Source: an uncultured Anaerolinea sp. (GTDB lineage Bacteria; Chloroflexota; Anaerolineae; Anaerolineales; Anaerolineaceae). From it: a stretch of DNA of 64,000 nt. The DNA lies in NCBI GenBank assembly GCA_964411135.1, contig CAYPJS010000078.1:111495-175494 (forward strand), read 5' to 3'. Under the pieces are notes generated by a model that was not told where the DNA came from, ran no database searches, and was given only the letters and a program-made list of their open reading frames with translations. Position numbers and translations under genes: made by a program. Positions 53,830 to 61,670 of the stretch are shown piece after piece; the first letter of the stretch is position 1; each line of letters begins with the position of its first letter.

Positions 53830-54400
53830 TTTTCCTGTTCAGGCTCTCGCGATACTTTTCCTCGTTTACAACCCCCACAAAGGGCAAGTTGCGGTAGAGC
53901 TCATCCAGATCAAGCCCATAACCGAAGACAAATTTATTAGGAATCTGGAAACCGACATAGCGGATCGGGACATAGACTTCGCGCCGCTCGGTTTTATCCA
54001 AAAGCGTACAAACGCTCATCGAGCGCGGCTTGCGGGCTGACAGGAGATCCAGCACCGAGGAAAGCGTGCGCCCTGAGTCAACGATGTCTTCGACCAGGAT
54101 GACGTCCCGATCGAAGATATTCACATTCAGGTCGAGCGTGATGCGCACCTGCCCGGAGGTTTCGCGGCTGCCAGCGCCGTAGGACGAGACCGCCATGAAT
54201 TCAACTGCATGCGGTACGCTGATCTGACGCATCAGGTCAGTCAGGAAGAGAACCCCGCCGCGCAGGATACAGATCAATACCAGCCGGTCGGAATTTCGAA
54301 AATCTTCGCTGATTTTCGAACCCAGCTCTGCGATACGGTTTTGCAGCAGCCCCTCAGGAACCAGTATTTCTTCGAGAAAGTCGTGGTAATCACCCATCAA
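53822..54400 (-). CDS. hpt: Hypoxanthine phosphoribosyltransferase
   Basis: ILRGGVLFLTDL, SSYG, ILVEDIVDSG.TL, FVFGYGLD..E.YRNLP. Confidence 0.97.
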   Translation of the reverse strand: MMGDYHDFLEEILVPEGLLQNRIAELGSKISEDFRNSDRLVLICILRGGVLFLTDLMRQISVPHAVEFMAVSSYGAGSRETSGQVRITLDLNVNIFDRDVILVEDIVDSGRTLSSVLDLLSARKPRSMSVCTLLDKTERREVYVPIRYVGFQIPNKFVFGYGLDLDELYRNLPFVGVVNEEKYRESLNRKND

Positions 54401-54406
54401 ACCCTC

Positions 54407-54979
54407 TTAGTCGCGCGGAACTTCATGATGCTTACGGCAGCGGGCTTCGTACATTTCGGAAGCCCCTACAATAATGATCGGGTCATCAGACCGAGCCGGG
54501 CGTCCATTGACCAGACGCTGCGTGCGCGAGGCAGATTCGCCGCAGGTCATACAAATCGCCTGCAGCTTGGTCACTTGCTCCGCAATCGCCATCAGGTCGG
54601 GCATGCACCCAAACGGCTCACCGCGGAAATCCGTGTCCAACCCGGCAACAATCACCCGGATGTTCTTGCTTGCCAGATCCTGAACGATCGCAACCACTGA
54701 TCCTTCAAAAAATTGAGCCTCGTCAATTGCCACCACAGTTGTGTTTGGTTCCAGATGCTCGTACAGATCTTCAATCCGTTCGATCGGTATAGCGTCGAAG
54801 GCTGTGCCGGCATGCGAGGTCACTCGTTCCACCTGGTAGCGGTTATCGATAACCGGCTTGAACACCTGCACCTTTTGCCGGGCGATGGTCGCGCGCCGCA
54901 AGCGGCGGATCATCTCGTCGGTCTTGCCGCTGAACATGGACCCTGTAATGACTTCAACCGAGCCAGTATGATGCTTCAT
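54407..54979 (-). CDS. tdk: Thymidine kinase
   Basis: [44 protein letters not shown]; ATG 54979. Confidence 0.97.
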
Positions 54980-55056
54980 GCTTCCCTCGAATAGGATTGT
55001 TTGCATCGATTCTACCGCATCTTACCGTGCGGCGCTGTGCAAACTTCCTTAAATAA

Positions 55057-55084
55057 AAAGACAGACGGTGTTCCGTCTGTCTTT
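55057..55084 (-). terminator. Intrinsic terminator of rplU-rpmA-rpmE
   Basis: AAAGACAGACGG-TGTT-CCGTCTGTCTTT; U-run follows on the minus strand. Confidence 0.85.
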
Positions 55085-55102
55085 CATGCGCATTAAGACG
55101 CT

Positions 55103-55579
55103 CTAGACCGCAACATCCTCGGCGGCAGCCGGGAGTTTGTAGCCTAACTGGCGCAGGGTTTTCTTCAAATCGATGAGTGATTTCCGGCCGAAACCATCCA
55201 CCTCGAGCAGGGCAGCCTCACCGGCTTCCAGCTTCTCGATAACCTGACCAACCGTGGTAATTCCGGCTTTTGCCAGAGCGTCGGTTGGGCGGGAACCAAG
55301 ACCGAGTTCAGCAACGGTCCGGTCGGGGGAGGTGCGCACAGTTTCGCGAGCCTTGACGGTTTCCACATAGTCCTGGCGGGCTTGCAAACGCTTGTAGAAG
55401 CGGTCCACCTGACCTTCGATGTCGAGGATGCGCTGCTGCTGACCGGTAAAGAAAGGATGGCACTTCGAGCAAACCTCGGTGCGGATCTCTTTACGAGTTG
55501 AACCTGTTTTCCAGGTGTTGCCGCAGGCGCAAACCACTGTGGCGTCAGGGTAATAAGTTGGGTGAATGTCTTTTCTCAT
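55103..55579 (-). CDS. rpmE: 50S ribosomal protein L31 (Zn-binding type) fused to an RNA polymerase alpha-CTD-like domain
   Basis: Residues 1-~68: [25 protein letters not shown]; residues ~84-149: [28 protein letters not shown]...[21 protein letters not shown]. Confidence 0.93.
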
Positions 55580-55658
55580 TTCAGAGGGTACCTTTTCTTA
55601 GGATTCCATTGCTTCCGGGCGGCGCTGGTTCGGCCGGCGGTGCAAGGACAACCATTCT

Positions 55659-55925
55659 TTACTCAGCTGCGACTTCGGGCAGCACACTGACCAGTTTGCG
55701 GCCGTTCGGCAGGGTTTCAAAAACCACAACGCCATCGGCAGTCGCAAACAACGTGTCATCCCGCCCAACCCCAACGTTGACGCCGGGTTTGATGTGGGTG
55801 CCGCGCTGGCGGACAAGAATGTTACCGGAAAGAACGACCTGGCCTGCGTAGCGCTTCACGCCAAGGCGTTGTGCATTGCTATCGCGGCCGTTACGACTGG
55901 AACCACCACCTTTTTTATGTGCCAT
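55659..55925 (-). CDS. rpmA: 50S ribosomal protein L27
   Basis: [43 protein letters not shown]. Confidence 0.98.
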
Positions 55926-55930
55926 GATTC

Positions 55931-56248
55931 TTACTCCACAACAATAGATTCGATCTTGAGGCGGGTGTACTGCTGGCGGTGACCAGTTTTGACACGGTAG
56001 TGCTTCTTCGCGCGGTAATTGAAGATGATCAATTTGGGACCCTTGAAATGATCTTCAACCGTGGTGCGAACCTTGACGCCTTTGACGGTAGGCGTACCCA
56101 CCTGTACACTTCCGTCCTCAACAACCAGAAGGACAGAGTCCAGTAAAACCTGCCCACCGACCTCGGTTTGCAGTTTGTCCACATCAATTGTGGCACCTTC
56201 GACGGCGCGGTACTGTTTACCGCCACTTTCAACAATCGCGTACTTCAT
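55931..56248 (-). CDS. rplU: 50S ribosomal protein L21
   Basis: [22 protein letters not shown]....GHRQ.YT.L.I; ATG 56248 with GGAG RBS. Confidence 0.97.
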
Positions 56249-56368
56249 AAGCTCCAATCTCCAATCTTCACTTCACCGTTCATCCCGCGGCCAATCCGCC
56301 GGTGGACGGGGAAGTTGGGGATACAAACCCTTGCCCCAGCAAAATGCGCCGGGGCGACAGCGGAAGGT

Positions 56369-56397
56369 ATTATAAGGGATGCGGGGATTTAAGTCAA
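56369..56397 (-). promoter_or_regulatory. Sigma70-type promoter of rplU operon
   Basis: TTGACT (56392-56397) - 17 nt - TATAAT (56369-56374), minus strand. Confidence 0.8.
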
Positions 56398-56445
56398 TAA
56401 GAAGGTTGGGGAATGGAAGTCTAGTTTTTCTGTTAATTAATTGCC

Positions 56446-58341
56446 CTATCCCCCTGCCTTGCCCCCCAGCTTCCGCACGTCCCCATCCCGTACGGTCACG
56501 CCTATCGCGTCCAGATGCTCCAGGAACGCCAGGGCGTACTTGCGGCTGGTATTGAACCGGTCGCGGAACTGCGCAGCCGTCAGGCTGCCTTCCTGCTCCA
56601 GGGTCTGCAGCACGGTTTCGCGCATCTGCTGGTAGTCCTCCAGGCGGAAGAGTACCTCAGGTGAAACTGCGATCAAGTCGCCGCGTTCGATCAACCCGGC
56701 CAGCAGCTCCTCGCCAACCAACGCGGCGCTGTCCTTGACGCTGGGCGTGGCGTACGGTGCAGCGGCAAACTGGCGCAGCAGGGCGTCCGCTCTGGCTTGC
56801 TGGGCAGGCGAGAACTTGATCTCGAAATCGGGCAGTTTTAATGTCTGACCGGTTTCGGCCAGCTTCCCGTTCTTAAGCAGCTCCGAAACCAGCATCTGGA
56901 AGATGCGCGGGGTTAGCTTGAGACGGCTTTTGAGCATCTCGCGCGGCATGCCGGCGCGCAGCGGATTTCCGGCATGGAAGTTGGCTACTTCCTGCTGCAA
57001 GCGGCCTATTTCGCGATTCCAGACGGCTGTATGCGCCGCCAGCCCGTCGGGGGTATCCTTTTCCAGCAGAAGCAGCTGTCCAGCCGGGACAACCTCGTCC
57101 AAAGCTGCCTTTGCCTGCTGATCGTCCAGCCGGGCGCGGCGCAACATGTCACGCAGCGAGACGATGCCCAGCGTCAGTGCAGCCTGCAGCAGCACTTCGG
57201 CAGGCGTGCCGGCCGTCAGGGCTTTAAGGCGGTCAAGCATGGCAGGGTCCTGGCGCCTGTGCCGTCCCTTCGGGTCGGGGTCAAGCACCACGCCGCCGCC
57301 GAGCGTTTCTCCAGGAGAGGGTCTGCGCAGAATATAGCGGTCGCCGCGCACTGCCGCTACCGGATCGCGCAGTTCGATTTGCAGGAAACCTTCATCCCCG
57401 GGAATCATCTGATCCGCCCCCAACACACGTACACGCCCAAGGATCTCGCTGCTGCCAACAAACACTTTGACCTCGCTGCTATGTTTAAGCGGACCTGCAA
57501 GGTCCTTCAACATGCGGAAGCTGACGTCCAACCGCTGACTGGCGTGATACTGCCCGGGCCGGGTCAACACGTCGCCGCGCTTAATCTGGCTGACATCCAG
57601 CCCGCTGACATTAACCGCCGTCCGGCTGCCCGGAGCTGCCAGGGATTCCTTTTGCCTGTGGGTTTGCAGTCCGCGCACCCTGCCGCGGTAACCCGACGGC
57701 ACAATTTCGAGTTCATCGCCTGTTTTCAGACTGCCATCCACCAGCGTGCCTGTGACGATGGTGCCAAACCCTGACATGGTAAAGACCCTGTCAACCGGCA
57801 GCCTGGGCCGTCCGAGGTCTGGTTTGGTAGGAGTCTCTTCCAGCAGGGCTGCCAACGCTTGCTTGAGGGTGTCAAGCCCCGCACCTGTCCGGGCAGAAAC
57901 CCGCACCACAGCCGAGTCCTGCAGGACCGTGCCTGCCAGCGTATCGCGCATATCAGTTTCCACCAGATCCAGCCAGTCGTCGTCCGGCACCAGATCGATC
58001 TTGGTCAGCACGATCAGGCCGCGTTGAACCTGCAGCAAGTCGAGGATCGCCAGATGCTCGCGGGTCTGGGGCATGACGCCCTCATCCGCTGCCACCACAA
58101 ACAGGGCAGCATCAATGCCGCCCACACCCGCCAGCATATTCTCAATAAAGTCGCGATGTCCGGGCACATCGATTATTCCAACGGTTTCGCCGTTGGGCAG
58201 CGGCAGCCAGCCGAAGCCCAGGTCGATGGTCATTTCCCGTTCGCGTTCCTCGCGCAGCCGGTCAGGATGGACGCCGGTTAATGCTGCAATCAGCGTTGAT
58301 TTTCCGTGATCAACATGCCCGGCAGTCCCAATTACGTGCAT
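56446..58341 (-). CDS. selB: Selenocysteine-specific elongation factor SelB
   Basis: GTAGHVDHGKS, DRL.EE..R.MTIDLGF, DVPGH, P.DRVFT..G.GT.VTGT, R.A.N, C-terminal winged helices ending TSRKYA..FLEHLD. Confidence 0.97.
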   Translation of the reverse strand: MHVIGTAGHVDHGKSTLIAALTGVHPDRLREEREREMTIDLGFGWLPLPNGETVGIIDVPGHRDFIENMLAGVGGIDAALFVVAADEGVMPQTREHLAILDLLQVQRGLIVLTKIDLVPDDDWLDLVETDMRDTLAGTVLQDSAVVRVSARTGAGLDTLKQALAALLEETPTKPDLGRPRLPVDRVFTMSGFGTIVTGTLVDGSLKTGDELEIVPSGYRGRVRGLQTHRQKESLAAPGSRTAVNVSGLDVSQIKRGDVLTRPGQYHASQRLDVSFRMLKDLAGPLKHSSEVKVFVGSSEILGRVRVLGADQMIPGDEGFLQIELRDPVAAVRGDRYILRRPSPGETLGGGVVLDPDPKGRHRRQDPAMLDRLKALTAGTPAEVLLQAALTLGIVSLRDMLRRARLDDQQAKAALDEVVPAGQLLLLEKDTPDGLAAHTAVWNREIGRLQQEVANFHAGNPLRAGMPREMLKSRLKLTPRIFQMLVSELLKNGKLAETGQTLKLPDFEIKFSPAQQARADALLRQFAAAPYATPSVKDSAALVGEELLAGLIERGDLIAVSPEVLFRLEDYQQMRETVLQTLEQEGSLTAAQFRDRFNTSRKYALAFLEHLDAIGVTVRDGDVRKLGGKAGG

Positions 58342-58353
58342 CCCATGCCCCTC

Positions 58354-59532
58354 TTAGCGGCTGGTCGGAATCGCCTGTTCGTGCTTTTCTGCCCAATCAC
58401 GCGCGATTCCCAGCAGGCTGTTGAGCCGCTTCTGGGTTTCATCCGCCATCTGATGCACCAGATCCTGCATCTCCTGCATTTGATCCTCCAACAGGATCAG
58501 GCGTTCCTCGAGTTTTCCGAACTGGCGGGTCAACTCCCGATTCTGCTCTTCCTGAGCCAGGGTGTAATTCGTCCAGCGCTTTTGATCGTCAGCCTTGAAG
58601 CCCACCCATTCCTGACGGAAGCGGTCCTCGATCAGGCGCTGCATTTCGGTGATCTCGTTGATGCGGCGTTCGAAACGCGCAGTAATTTCATCGAAGGCTT
58701 CCTGCGAACGTTTGACCGCCCGGTGGGTGGCGTCCAACGACTGAAGCTGCGACTCTAGGTTTTGCGACTGGCTCTCGACCTGCTCGAAGCGCCCCTGCAT
58801 CTCGCGCCAGACCCGGTCACGTTCCATGATGGCCATATTTTGCTTTTCCATGAAAGCCACCTGGCTTTGCCGCCGCTCATTCTCTCCCGCCAGGATTTCG
58901 CTGATGCGCAATTCCAACTTACGCATGGAATCGGTGGTCAGGTCAGTACGCCCGCGCTGCTCCTCAATCCGCTTGCGTATGGCACTTACCTCGCCCTGAA
59001 GATCGGTCAGGCGTTTGGCATCCTGCCGCTGACCTTCGTCCAGCAATTTGATCTGGCGGCGGTACTCCTCGTCCGAGCGGCGGATGGAGGCCAGTTTTGT
59101 GGCCAGTTCTTCGATCTCCGTTCCCAGCCGGTTCTCTCCCTCAATGCGAGCCTGCAGCCCTTTTTTAAGATCGGGGATTCCTTCCTGGCTCTTACGGATT
59201 TCTCCCATGGTTCGGTTAAGCGATTCCAAATCTGCCAGCCGAACTTTTTCATGGTCGCGTTCTCGTTCAGCGCGCAGTTTTTCAACTTCCTGAACCTGCC
59301 GCGATGAATCCACCCGCAATTGGCCAATGCTGTTTTCAATCTGTTCAAAGCGCGTAAGGGACATGCTCACCCGGGCGAGATCGCCTTCAAGGGTGCCAAT
59401 TTTTTGATCTACCGGCGTGATGCGTTCCTCGAGATCGGCAATCCTGTCCTGCAGGGTCGCGATCAGCAGTTTATCTTTACGCCGTTCCTCATCCAGCCAG
59501 TCCAGCTGTTTTTTAACTTGATCTGTATCCAT
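58354..59532 (-). CDS. Long coiled-coil protein of unknown function
   Basis: 392 aa, almost entirely E/Q/R/K/L-rich heptad-like sequence; no enzymatic motif or TM. Confidence 0.85.
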   Translation of the reverse strand: MDTDQVKKQLDWLDEERRKDKLLIATLQDRIADLEERITPVDQKIGTLEGDLARVSMSLTRFEQIENSIGQLRVDSSRQVQEVEKLRAERERDHEKVRLADLESLNRTMGEIRKSQEGIPDLKKGLQARIEGENRLGTEIEELATKLASIRRSDEEYRRQIKLLDEGQRQDAKRLTDLQGEVSAIRKRIEEQRGRTDLTTDSMRKLELRISEILAGENERRQSQVAFMEKQNMAIMERDRVWREMQGRFEQVESQSQNLESQLQSLDATHRAVKRSQEAFDEITARFERRINEITEMQRLIEDRFRQEWVGFKADDQKRWTNYTLAQEEQNRELTRQFGKLEERLILLEDQMQEMQDLVHQMADETQKRLNSLLGIARDWAEKHEQAIPTSR

Positions 59533-59694: not shown

Positions 59695-61089
59695 TTAGAA
59701 TATCTGGGGAAAAGCCTGCAGGATAAAAATAATCGAGTGATAAAACGTTTGTGGAAAGATTCCAAACAACAACAGGAACAGGATTCCACCAATCAGAATC
59801 ACCCGCTCCGGCCAGTTTTCACCCAGGTGCCAGGATCGGTCCTCAGAATGCACCAACTCTGAGAGCACCTGGATAGCGCTGAAAACCAGTCCCGCAGTGC
59901 CGACTGCAGCCCCAATGAATGCGGTTTGAGAAATTTCAGCCAGCTGCTCGAATACCTCCAACCGCACCGGCAGCCCGGCCAGCAAAGGGAAGCCGGCGAT
60001 CGAAAGCAGGGAACTCAACAGGCCAAGGGAAATCAACGGATACTTGTGTGCCAATCCGCGCACACCAGCCAGTGTCAGGGGTATAGCATGATTTTCAAGG
60101 CTGGCGAGGGAGAATGCCAGAACCAGAAGGGCCAGCAGCCGCGGCATGAACGACGCCGCGAACAGCATCCATCCCGGCAGATTGTTCAAACTAATGGCAA
60201 ACAGGGCAAACCCCGTCTCAAAGATAACGGCGTAGCCAAAAATTCGCGCCAGGTTAACTTGAAACATAGCCCACAACCCGGCGGTGAAAACCATCATTAC
60301 AGCCACAACCCGCAGCACATTATAAAGATCTTCAGAAGAGCGTAAGAAAGGCGTGGCATTGATAAAGTCCAGGCCGAGCAGCAGGATGGCAGTGGGCAAA
60401 AGACTGAGGACGAAACCAACCGGGAACGGATGGGTTTCCGTCATCATCATCGGCAGCCAGTTATAAAATGGGAAAACCGCGAGCCAGAAGGCAAAACCCA
60501 GTCCAAGGAAGAGACCCGCACGGTTGAAAGAGGCTGTCTCAGCTGGATTAACGCCAGCAGCATTCATCAACCACCCAGCAAAAAGGATAGCTGGCACAGC
60601 CAGAGTTTGAAAGATAAGGTACCGCTGCAATCCCGGTCCAACTGGCCTGCCAGGCGGTGACAAAAATGGGATGCTGAACAGGACGGCGGTTTCGACTAAT
60701 AAAGCCGCATACAGGAAGGGTTCAACAGCCAATGCTGCTACCAACGCAGCCAGCATACCCAGGCCAAAAGGCGCAAACAATCGGTGGGGCCAGGCCATCA
60801 ATGCCAGCCCAAACCAGACTGCGCCAATACCGTACAGCAGTGTCAGGATCATCCGGTCTTCAGGTGACAGGATAAAACGCCGTCCCAGAACCGGCAGCGT
60901 GGACGACAGGGTAAAACTGAGGCTGCCCAGATTCACTGGAGCGTTGATTGGAATGACTGCAGCTGCCAAACTCAAAATAAAGCACAATCCAGCAGACAAT
61001 CCCAGCGTCAGATTTTGATTTCTACGCAGGGACCACAGAAACAAACCTCCCGCGGCGGGGACCACTACCCATAAAACCGGTGCACTCAA
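59695..61089 (-). CDS. Proton-conducting-transporter (NuoN/MrpD-like) membrane subunit, degenerate
   Basis: About 14 TM; RYLIFQ, FPFYNWLP, Q.NL.RIFGYA, SIAGFPLLAG align with antiporter-like subunit motifs. Confidence 0.8.
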   Translation of the reverse strand: MSAPVLWVVVPAAGGLFLWSLRRNQNLTLGLSAGLCFILSLAAAVIPINAPVNLGSLSFTLSSTLPVLGRRFILSPEDRMILTLLYGIGAVWFGLALMAWPHRLFAPFGLGMLAALVAALAVEPFLYAALLVETAVLFSIPFLSPPGRPVGPGLQRYLIFQTLAVPAILFAGWLMNAAGVNPAETASFNRAGLFLGLGFAFWLAVFPFYNWLPMMMTETHPFPVGFVLSLLPTAILLLGLDFINATPFLRSSEDLYNVLRVVAVMMVFTAGLWAMFQVNLARIFGYAVIFETGFALFAISLNNLPGWMLFAASFMPRLLALLVLAFSLASLENHAIPLTLAGVRGLAHKYPLISLGLLSSLLSIAGFPLLAGLPVRLEVFEQLAEISQTAFIGAAVGTAGLVFSAIQVLSELVHSEDRSWHLGENWPERVILIGGILFLLLFGIFPQTFYHSIIFILQAFPQIF

Positions 61090-61670
61090 GGCTGTTCCTC
61101 CACTGGGAGGAGGCTTAACCAGTAAGCGCCGGTCAGGGCTATGCCGAGAGTAACCAGTGCCAGCAGGCCGGCCACTAGGATGGACGAGACGACCGCCGCA
61201 TAGATGATTTCAAAACCACATAATACATTCATCAGGCCAAGGATGATACGGAATGGCCCGGAGGTCATGCCCAACTGCAGCAGCCCCATTCCGATCAGCA
61301 GGATACTGCTGAATAGTGCAGGAAAGGTCAATGGAATCCAATCGGTGCCATTCGGGGCAACGGAAAAAGCCAGAATGACCGACAAACTGGCTGCCAGGAT
61401 TCGGAAAATTTTTCCCGAAACGGCGGTGGTTGGCACGGGCAATCCGCCCAAGGCGTTGACAGAGGAGCCAAGGATTGCAGCCGCCATCCAGCCTGAAATC
61501 AACTTTACAGACGCCAGCCCGATCGGCCATACCTGAGCTACAAACCAAAACACGCCCAGGTACTGGATTGCCACAGCTAAAATGTTGATGCGCCATTTCT
61601 CAGTCCAGAGCAGAGAAATGGAAGCCCCAAGCACAAGGACGGCTGCGATGATGTCGAAGATCTGCATCAA
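61086..61670 (-). CDS. Small polytopic membrane protein, distantly HyfE/NuoK-like
   Basis: 194 aa with about six TM, sandwiched between two antiporter-like genes; family call tentative. Confidence 0.65.
   Translation of the reverse strand: MMQIFDIIAAVLVLGASISLLWTEKWRINILAVAIQYLGVFWFVAQVWPIGLASVKLISGWMAAAILGSSVNALGGLPVPTTAVSGKIFRILAASLSVILAFSVAPNGTDWIPLTFPALFSSILLIGMGLLQLGMTSGPFRIILGLMNVLCGFEIIYAAVVSSILVAGLLALVTLGIALTGAYWLSLLPVEEQP

Follow-up and report, generated by a model that had tools for sequence, protein, structure and literature searches.

The rpmE gene of an uncultured Anaerolinea species encodes a ribosomal protein bL31 that continues, beyond the L31 domain and a charged spacer, into a domain which by its sequence and predicted fold belongs to the family of the C-terminal domain of the RNA polymerase alpha subunit (alpha-CTD). 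In a 64,000-nucleotide (nt) stretch of contig CAYPJS010000078.1 (assembly GCA_964411135.1), hereafter the window, the gene is on the minus strand. An earlier interpretation of this DNA, made from its letters without database searches (the sequence-only reading), had proposed a complete zinc-type L31 followed by a charged helical linker and an alpha-CTD-like domain, and our analysis bears out all three parts. The fusion amounts to a ribosomal protein that carries a domain specific to its lineage, and the donor of that domain, the transcription machinery, is unusual. The permanent gain, by the main L31 of Anaerolineae, of a small domain for nucleic-acid binding that is known elsewhere from RNA polymerase and NusA hints at a possible physical link between the ribosome and the transcription machinery.

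The L31 part and the alpha-CTD-type domain

A Pfam scan of the fusion protein returned both Ribosomal_L31 and RNA_pol_A_CTD above their cut-offs, the pair that the sequence-only reading had anticipated. The L31 match (PF01197) covers residues 1-65 and model positions 1-64 of 65, with 93.3 bits against a cut-off of 27 and an E value of 1e-26, and two NCBIfam models also exceed their cut-offs (NF000612, 91.1 bits, cut-off 70; TIGR00105, 85.1 bits, cut-off 38.35). The cysteines of the CxC...CxxC zinc ribbon, which are C17, C19, C37 and C40 in the translation, are invariant in 42 relatives; together with the full-model Pfam match, they identify the L31 as complete and of the zinc type. By every sequence and synteny test, the fusion protein is a member of the bL31 family.

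For the C-terminal part, PF03118 (RNA_pol_A_CTD) matches residues 82-143 with 36.1 bits (gathering cut-off 23.8; E 5.5e-9). A phmmer search of all PDB sequences with the C-terminal 85 residues retrieved RpoA almost exclusively, headed by B. subtilis alpha-CTD chains at 2e-5, and when a profile of the domain was used, 51 RpoA sequences ranked before anything else (best E 4.5e-18). An AlphaFold2 model of the fusion was built with 42 relatives and reached a mean predicted local distance difference test score (pLDDT) of 74.8, with values of 77-85 over the domain. When this model was compared with the PDB by Foldseek, its N-terminal half matched bL31 chains of 70S ribosomes and its C-terminal half matched RpoA CTDs only, every non-L31 match in the top 50 being an RpoA CTD. 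Superpositions on alpha-CTDs gave 0.9 Å over 58 amino acids (aa) for 7vpd_S, 1.4 Å over 65 aa for 3n97_B and 2.1 Å over 65 aa for 3k4g_A. The linker is predicted to be helical, as had been proposed, with a model helix that runs from residue 42 to residue 82. Taken from these profile, database and model comparisons, the domain is a genuine member of the RNA polymerase alpha-CTD family, formed by 65 residues with two helix-hairpin-helix (HhH) motifs, (HhH)2.

Other identities for the domain and the protein were considered and rejected. A generic HhH domain unrelated to the alpha-CTD, a doubt that the sequence-only reading had itself raised, was assessed by Pfam, the PDB profile and Foldseek and set aside, because the generic family HHH_5 matched below its own cut-off in the Pfam scan and because the PDB matches below E 1e-4 and the non-L31 matches in the Foldseek top 50 are all RpoA CTDs. 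The fusion protein was not accepted as RpoA itself, since its N-terminus is L31 and lacks the alpha subunit N-terminal domain (alpha-NTD), and since the NCBIfam rpoA equivalog models match at the C-terminal end only, with their last ~80 positions and scores far under cut-off. AR1 and AR2 of E. coli NusA were rejected as the closest relatives because the domain profile found no PDB match to them; no NusA chain appeared among the PDB matches of the profile at E <= 10 or of the single sequence at E <= 1.

Alignments with E. coli RpoA equate R97 of the fusion protein with R265, D100 with N268, G129 with N294, and G131, R132, K133 and S134 with G296, K297, K298 and S299. The retained Arg and G-x-K-S and the replacement of the conserved Asn by Asp had therefore been recognized correctly from the letters. 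The domain in the window also has a basic helix (K139, K140 and R143) and a 3-residue insertion near residues 117-120. The surface by which the E. coli alpha-CTD contacts UP-element DNA is formed by R265, N268, N294, G296, K298 and S299, and the 261 and 287 determinants provide its contacts to sigma and CAP.

We compared, in E. coli numbering, 37 L31-borne copies of the domain with 138 repeats of the same kind carried by NusA, which are described below. Position 265 is R or K in 37/37 L31 copies and R in 138/138 NusA repeats, and G296 and K298 are kept in both groups. Asn at 268, present in 119/138 NusA repeats, occurs in 0/37 L31 copies (E in 11, D in 8, A in 6, T in 4, with further residues in the rest), and position 294 is G in 37/37 L31 copies, whereas the NusA repeats have N in 77 and G in 41 of the 138. 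The two groups differ likewise at position 297 (R in 27/37 L31 copies, P in 130/138 NusA repeats), position 305 (K or R in 34/37, E or D in 125/138) and position 308 (R in 34/37, Q in 122/138). S299 is mostly kept in the L31 copies, which have gained a basic face made up of R297, K304, K305 and R308; E261 is unconserved in them, and the 3-residue insertion falls at the 287 determinant. The complete 265 determinant, with all six DNA-contacting residues, is not found in the L31 copies. Because the phosphate-gripping core is kept while both Asn are dropped and a basic helix is added, the residue pattern identifies the L31 CTD as an altered nucleic-acid-binding surface and not as a preserved UP-element reader. 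Net charge was set aside as a discriminator between the two groups, since the means (+0.7 for L31 copies, -1.1 for NusA copies) belong to ranges that overlap widely.

Kinship with NusA, distribution and genomic setting

Domains of the same subtype stand at the end of NusA in Chloroflexota. At locus L092, which represents a divergent L31-CTD lineage (P0138/P0293), nusA adjoins rplU divergently and encodes a protein of 667 aa (L092:936-2939, minus strand) whose C-terminal end consists of two PF03118 repeats (122 bits). The L31 CTD of this locus is 82.6% identical to nusA repeat 2 in DNA over 201 nt and 80% identical in protein, and the 66 codons compared include 35 identical, 18 synonymous and 13 non-synonymous ones. 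Because of this near-identity to nusA repeat 2, set against a protein identity of only ~42% to the L31 CTD of the window (measured on the cluster-mate P0138), the sequences indicate that nusA was the source from which the L092 lineage took, or copied anew, its L31 domain. Compared with its own nusA donor, the L092 L31 copy, which was acquired independently, has also changed N268 to D and N294 to G, and the substitutions at these two positions in L092 and in the other L31 copies are, as the alignments read, a parallel change.

A search with the L092 NusA found a precomputed PF03118 match in 118 of the 120 best NusA clusters, several of which are named Anaerolineae, Anaerolineales or Chloroflexi. 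A hidden Markov model (HMM) of the L31 CTD detected the domain in all 121 NusA proteins of a sample biased to relatives of locus L092, once in 104 and twice in 17 of them, with a median of 58 bits (range 50-62); the same HMM gave 30 bits for the RpoA CTD of E. coli, 40 for B. subtilis and 37 for M. tuberculosis. An HMM of the NusA repeats scored the B. subtilis alpha-CTD equal to the L31 CTDs, in a comparison that contained no Chloroflexota RpoA. The 3-residue insertion, which lies between helices 3 and 4, is common to the L31 CTDs and the NusA repeats in the alignment and absent from every solved RpoA CTD (63 profile positions versus 60 residues there). By this common insertion, the L31 domain can be placed with the NusA-type repeat subtype of Chloroflexota, and since that subtype also forms the C-terminal repeat or repeats of NusA in the clade, the domain appears to have been recruited from the transcription apparatus. 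The domain is too short for a resolved tree, and the sequences would fit either a descent from RpoA through NusA to L31 or one from RpoA to both. A tblastn search with E. coli RpoA as the query covered the window and loci L001-L080 and found no rpoA. Chloroflexota NusA proteins (570-680 aa; also P0473, P0513, P0518, P0491 and P0544) have one or two PF03118 repeats at their end, after which come a long Glu/Val/Ala-rich acidic tract and then a conserved basic C-terminal motif, ~LVYDEELGK.VAKRRRKPGRRREEWEDY.

The fusion itself is widespread. The best 120 clusters from a collection of 5.8 billion proteins are 158-174 aa long (117 of them exactly 158), contain both Pfam domains and are 76-97% identical; Bellilinea caldifistulae and metagenome-assembled genomes (MAGs) of Anaerolineaceae are among them, several on multi-Mb contigs. 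The fusion was seen in >120 independent 90%-identity clusters, including complete chromosomes, an HMMER scan of 1.84 billion representatives gave 22 clusters below 1e-30, and the exact protein of the window recurs on nine JGI metagenome contigs with its neighbours unchanged. With one genome taken per GTDB species, the full fusion (149-166 aa) is present in 33 loci, which comprise every Anaerolineae locus fetched. Their labels, as chosen by the depositors of the MAGs, read Anaerolineae, Anaerolineales, Anaerolineaceae, Leptolinea or, imprecisely, 'Chloroflexi/Chloroflexota/Chloroflexia'. Fetched loci from Dehalococcoidia, Ktedonobacterales, Chloroflexia, Clostridia, the Candidate Phyla Radiation (CPR) and others have a plain L31 of 63-108 aa. 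The sequence-only reading had considered that the fusion might be missing from relatives, as an assembly artefact would be; instead, all fetched Anaerolineae loci carry it, and plain L31 is what sister classes have. An assembly artefact was rejected in view of the number of clusters, the complete chromosomes and multi-Mb contigs, the 33 GTDB species genomes and the nine further contigs.

Mean pairwise identity among 32 Anaerolineae sequences is 73% for the L31 domain, 52% for the CTD and 41% for the spacer, and the spacer is free of insertions and deletions in 31/32 of them, with a protein length of 157-159 aa in most. Approximate ratios of non-synonymous to synonymous substitution rates (dN/dS) were 0.07 for L31, 0.26 for the spacer and 0.15 for the CTD, values that are qualitative only since dS, at ~1.7, is saturated. 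The fusion, including its CTD, is under purifying selection as judged from these comparisons. Fixed in length, predicted to be helical and variable in sequence, the spacer looks like a ruler and not a floppy tether. In close relatives, the C-terminal tail follows the pattern (A/S)AA(E/D)(E/D)I.V in the alignments.

Several variants were encountered alongside the typical fusion. A Cys-less (non-zinc) L31 (CNG..V...WSGNHPF) with an alpha-CTD-type domain follows rplU-rpmA at L032:3498-3950 and L093/L094:4001-4450 (P0144), so the add-on is not tied to the zinc form. The fusion gene of one MAG (L033:6001-6489, on a 3.7-Mb contig) loses its frame inside the CTD, and the likely reason is an indel from sequencing, not decay to a pseudogene. 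A stand-alone protein of 246 aa (P0183) consists of three canonical alpha-CTD repeats in tandem (PF03118, 179 bits, 3 stretches), with no N-terminal part of L31, NusA or RpoA. In another, of 145 aa (P0262), a spacer and CTD of the L31 type come straight after the C-terminal stretch of a methionine sulfoxide reductase (PMSR); assembly of a chimera, a rearrangement or a wrongly called gene may account for it.

Read along the minus strand, the genomic order is the promoter-like site, rplU, rpmA, the fusion gene, the hairpin, tdk, hpt and a gene for a CCA-adding-type nucleotidyltransferase (Table 1). Because the gap after rpmA is 79 nt and no promoter-like site was detected between rpmA and the fusion rpmE, the two genes are probably co-transcribed. 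The order rplU-rpmA-rpmE-tdk(-hpt) is kept in 33/33 fusion loci, and the identical slot holds a plain L31 of 63-104 aa in Dehalococcoidia, Chloroflexia and one unclassified member of Chloroflexota (L034, L036, L045, L063 and L074). By this synteny, the fusion gene corresponds in position to the main L31 as its orthologue, and since the slot holds plain L31 in sister classes, it was the L31 gene already resident in the Anaerolineae lineage that received the domain. Within the window, neither a second L31 nor another alpha-CTD-type sequence was found. The view of the sequence-only reading that this is probably the main L31 gains support from the plain rpmE of the sister classes and from the single L31 in the window. 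Its description of a normal rplU-rpmA operon holds in part: the gene does follow rplU and rpmA on the same strand, and the word normal applies to Chloroflexota, rpmE after rplU-rpmA not being the usual arrangement in E. coli or B. subtilis.

Table 1. Features of the rplU-rpmA-rpmE unit and of the fusion gene, in window positions.
Feature	Position	Strand	Basis
Candidate sigma-70-like promoter upstream of rplU (TTGACT, 17 nt, TATAAT; 11/12 matches)	56369..56397	-	consensus match only
rplU (L21), first gene of the operon	55931..56257	-	Pfam Ribosomal_L21p, E 9.6e-35
rpmA (L27)	55659..55925	-	Pfam Ribosomal_L27, E 2.6e-36
rpmE fusion gene (bL31 + linker + alpha-CTD-type domain)	55103..55579	-	open reading frame, ATG start, 158 aa + stop
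bL31 domain, Zn-ribbon type, aa 1-65	55385..55579	-	Pfam PF01197; Foldseek match to bL31 chains
Charged spacer, aa 66-81, predicted helical	55337..55384	-	helix 42-82 in model
alpha-CTD-type (HhH)2 domain, aa 82-150	55130..55336	-	PF03118, PDB profile matches, Foldseek
Short acidic/hydrophobic C-terminal tail AAAEDVAV, aa 151-158, + stop	55103..55129	-	alignments
Intrinsic-terminator-like hairpin then TTTTATTT, closing the rplU-rpmA-rpmE unit before tdk	55059..55078	-	sequence

An Rfam scan of positions 54000-57000 gave only a sub-threshold chance match (sau-63, 23.8 bits versus 100) and no match to an L21 leader. The rplU leader of ~110 nt (56258-56397, minus strand) combines the strong promoter match with a terminator-like hairpin at 56362-56347, which could serve as an attenuator. 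Immediately upstream of the operon lies a complete gene for SelB, the selenocysteine-specific elongation factor (56446-58341, minus strand), and its presence implies selenoprotein synthesis in the source organism; a SelB gene also stands beside the operon in L005, L011, L015 and L020 and at <3 kb in L010. Two minus-strand open reading frames of this region had no Pfam family at E <= 1e-5, one at 58354-59532 (392 aa, highly charged and coiled-coil-like) and one at 61086-61670 (194 aa).

The C-terminus of L31 bears other appendages in Chloroflexota. The representative search returned L31-DUF4332, which has another HhH domain (240 aa, ~27 clusters) and whose DUF4332 part is ~70% identical to stand-alone Chloroflexi proteins of 134 aa, as well as L31 with Arg/Lys/Pro/Ala-rich tails of 120-225 residues. 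One looked-up example of each, an L31-DUF4332 (L087:5001-5723) and a basic-tail L31 (L091:4001-4873, P0179), occupies the rplU-rpmA-rpmE-tdk slot. From their sequences, the C-terminus of Chloroflexota bL31 is a recurrent attachment point for appendages of the nucleic-acid-binding type, and DUF4332, the basic tails and the re-acquisition in L092 suggest recurrent selection for such an appendage at this end of the protein. The basic-tail proteins measure 177-290 aa (P0154, P0157-P0162, P0177-P0179, P0191 and P0243), and their low-complexity tail is also Glu-rich. Stand-alone DUF4332 genes in L088-L090 come after genes resembling those of molybdopterin oxidoreductase and NADH dehydrogenase.

Possible functions of the added domain

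The only protein-protein bridge known to connect the 50S central protuberance with the mobile 30S head is that of bL31, and a folded, conserved domain at its head end should affect the dynamics of the head or link the ribosome elsewhere. The N-terminal domain of bL31 binds uL5 on the central protuberance and its C-terminal part binds uS13 on the 30S head, in bridge B1b (PMC10931766), so the added domain would emerge at the head. We tentatively favor, at a probability of about 0.4, a ribosome-resident module that binds nucleic acid independently of sequence and tunes the bridge between the head and the central protuberance. The rigid spacer would position the domain at a set distance from its anchor on the 30S head, where it would most likely grip RNA on or beside the ribosome, either rRNA of the head and central protuberance or mRNA. 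This grip would reinforce or tune the head-to-central-protuberance bridge, and UP-element DNA would not be read by the L31 domain, unlike the situation in RpoA. Such an RNA-binding module is preferred because of the fixed spacer, the basic surface specific to L31, the loss of the DNA-specific Asn residues and the generic binders found in sister lineages. Four considerations weigh against it. The classical ligand of HhH domains is DNA, not RNA; the net charge of the domain is only ~0 to +4 and overlaps that of the NusA repeats; the kinship and repeated exchange with the NusA module would suit a partner linked to transcription no less naturally than rRNA; and the fixed length of the spacer is our only ground for a docked position on the ribosome.

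A transcription-linked partner is the substance of the main alternative, possible if somewhat doubtful and already raised in the sequence-only reading as coupling through NusA or DNA, by which the L31 CTD projects from the 30S head and binds the NusA repeat or repeats, the RpoA alpha-CTD or DNA, tethering the lead ribosome to RNA polymerase (RNAP). The domain is a true alpha-CTD homologue that retains R265, G296 and K298 of the UP-element site, all 121 Chloroflexota NusA proteins examined contain its subtype once or twice, insertion included, and the DNA identity between the L092 L31 CTD and nusA repeat 2 would mean that transcription factor and ribosome can exchange the module. Pairing between domains of this kind has a precedent in E. 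coli, where NusA-AR2 binds the alpha-CTD by way of the UP-element site and also binds the N-terminal domain of NusG (PMC4937328 and a reference cited there). The lead ribosome might dock on the elongation complex through (HhH)2-(HhH)2 pairing or through DNA, which would be a hard-wired, NusG-independent form of coupling, conceivable but not what we would expect. However, the L31 copies diverge from NusA at N268, N294, 297, 305 and 308, which suggests a different partner surface, and the 261 and 287 determinants are unconserved or broken by the insertion. The spacer, of fixed length and probably rigid, contrasts with the flexible tether of RpoA, and the replacement of the domain by DUF4332 or basic tails in sister lineages is explained more easily by generic nucleic-acid binding. 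In expressome structures, the mRNA entry site at which RNAP docks is distant from the C-terminus of bL31, which is on the head's interface side, and a coupling domain would have a long path to cover.

It is unlikely that the (HhH)2 domain instead forms dimers or brings in a protein factor, for instance during hibernation, for polysome packing or as the dock of a lineage-specific translation factor. The ability of (HhH)2 domains to pair, as E. coli AR2 does with the alpha-CTD (PMC4937328), the conserved peptide that follows the domain in close relatives and the L31-specific surface changes are all compatible with protein docking, but conservation is highest at the Gly and Lys of the hairpin, which bind the phosphate backbone in the alpha-CTD, and the basic low-complexity tails of sister lineages point to nucleic acid. 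An extraribosomal role, in which L31-CTD off the ribosome regulates its own mRNA, serves as a decoy or works as a transcription factor in competition with the RpoA alpha-CTD or NusA, seems quite improbable; the sequence-only reading had put forward the decoy and autoregulator versions, for which no evidence emerged. The homology to the alpha-CTD would suit it, as would the autoregulation of rpmE translation by E. coli bL31, although the repressor activity there resides in the N-terminal segment and not at the C-terminus (PMC10931766). Moreover, neither an Rfam element nor a conserved leader was found in 54000-57000, rpmE is probably co-transcribed with rpmA, and both the fixed spacer length and the fact that the domain is always present at the primary rpmE slot argue for a function on the ribosome. 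The chance that the domain is an assembly artefact or a functionless, neutral passenger is negligible given the >120 clusters and 33 GTDB species genomes, the purifying selection, the invariant length and the conserved synteny.

Comparison with known systems

We found no description of an L31/alpha-CTD fusion, of alpha-CTD-type repeats in NusA, of the tract and motif behind them or of other L31 add-ons in the literature searched, and databases show both Pfam matches yet name the protein simply 'L31'. With canonical bL31 of type A (RpmE), the fusion protein shares the full-length domain, the zinc ribbon and the gene slot of the sister classes, and it differs by ~90 extra C-terminal residues. 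The other L31 add-ons have in common with the alpha-CTD fusion the slot, the end of the protein at which they are attached and their nucleic-acid-binding type, whereas the domains themselves are unrelated to the alpha-CTD type or only distantly related to it.

The alpha-CTD of RpoA resembles the L31 domain in its PF03118 match, its fold (0.9-2.1 Å), both HhH hairpins and the residues R265, G296, K298 and S299. In contrast to it, the L31 domain is attached to bL31 and not to an alpha-NTD, never has Asn at 268 or 294, carries the insertion at the 287 determinant, does not conserve E261 and has a helix 4 with extra basic residues (K304, K305 and R308); its spacer, a conserved segment of constant length with a predicted helical structure, is unlike the flexible linker of RpoA. 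The Chloroflexota NusA repeats (L092:936-2939; P0473, P0513 and P0544) share with the L31 CTD the subtype and the 3-residue insertion and score 50-62 bits on the L31-CTD HMM against 30-40 bits for RpoA CTDs, and they differ in keeping N268 (119/138) and often N294, in having P297, E/D305 and Q308, and in the acidic tract and basic motif that follow. AR1 and AR2 of E. coli NusA are (HhH)2 domains as well, occupy the place in NusA that the Chloroflexota repeats have and provide, in AR2, a precedent for protein docking, whereas their sequence similarity to a profile of the L31/NusA-type CTD is not detectable (PDB, E <= 10). The occurrence of an alpha-CTD module on both NusA and L31, and its movement between nusA and rpmE, opens ribosome-RNA polymerase communication outside model organisms to experiment. 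Only if the domain does couple the two machines would the NusG and RfaH bridges between ribosome and RNAP be a functional analogy, with one polypeptide contacting two machines and no homology involved, and the bridge of Anaerolineae would then differ from theirs in being built into a ribosomal protein.

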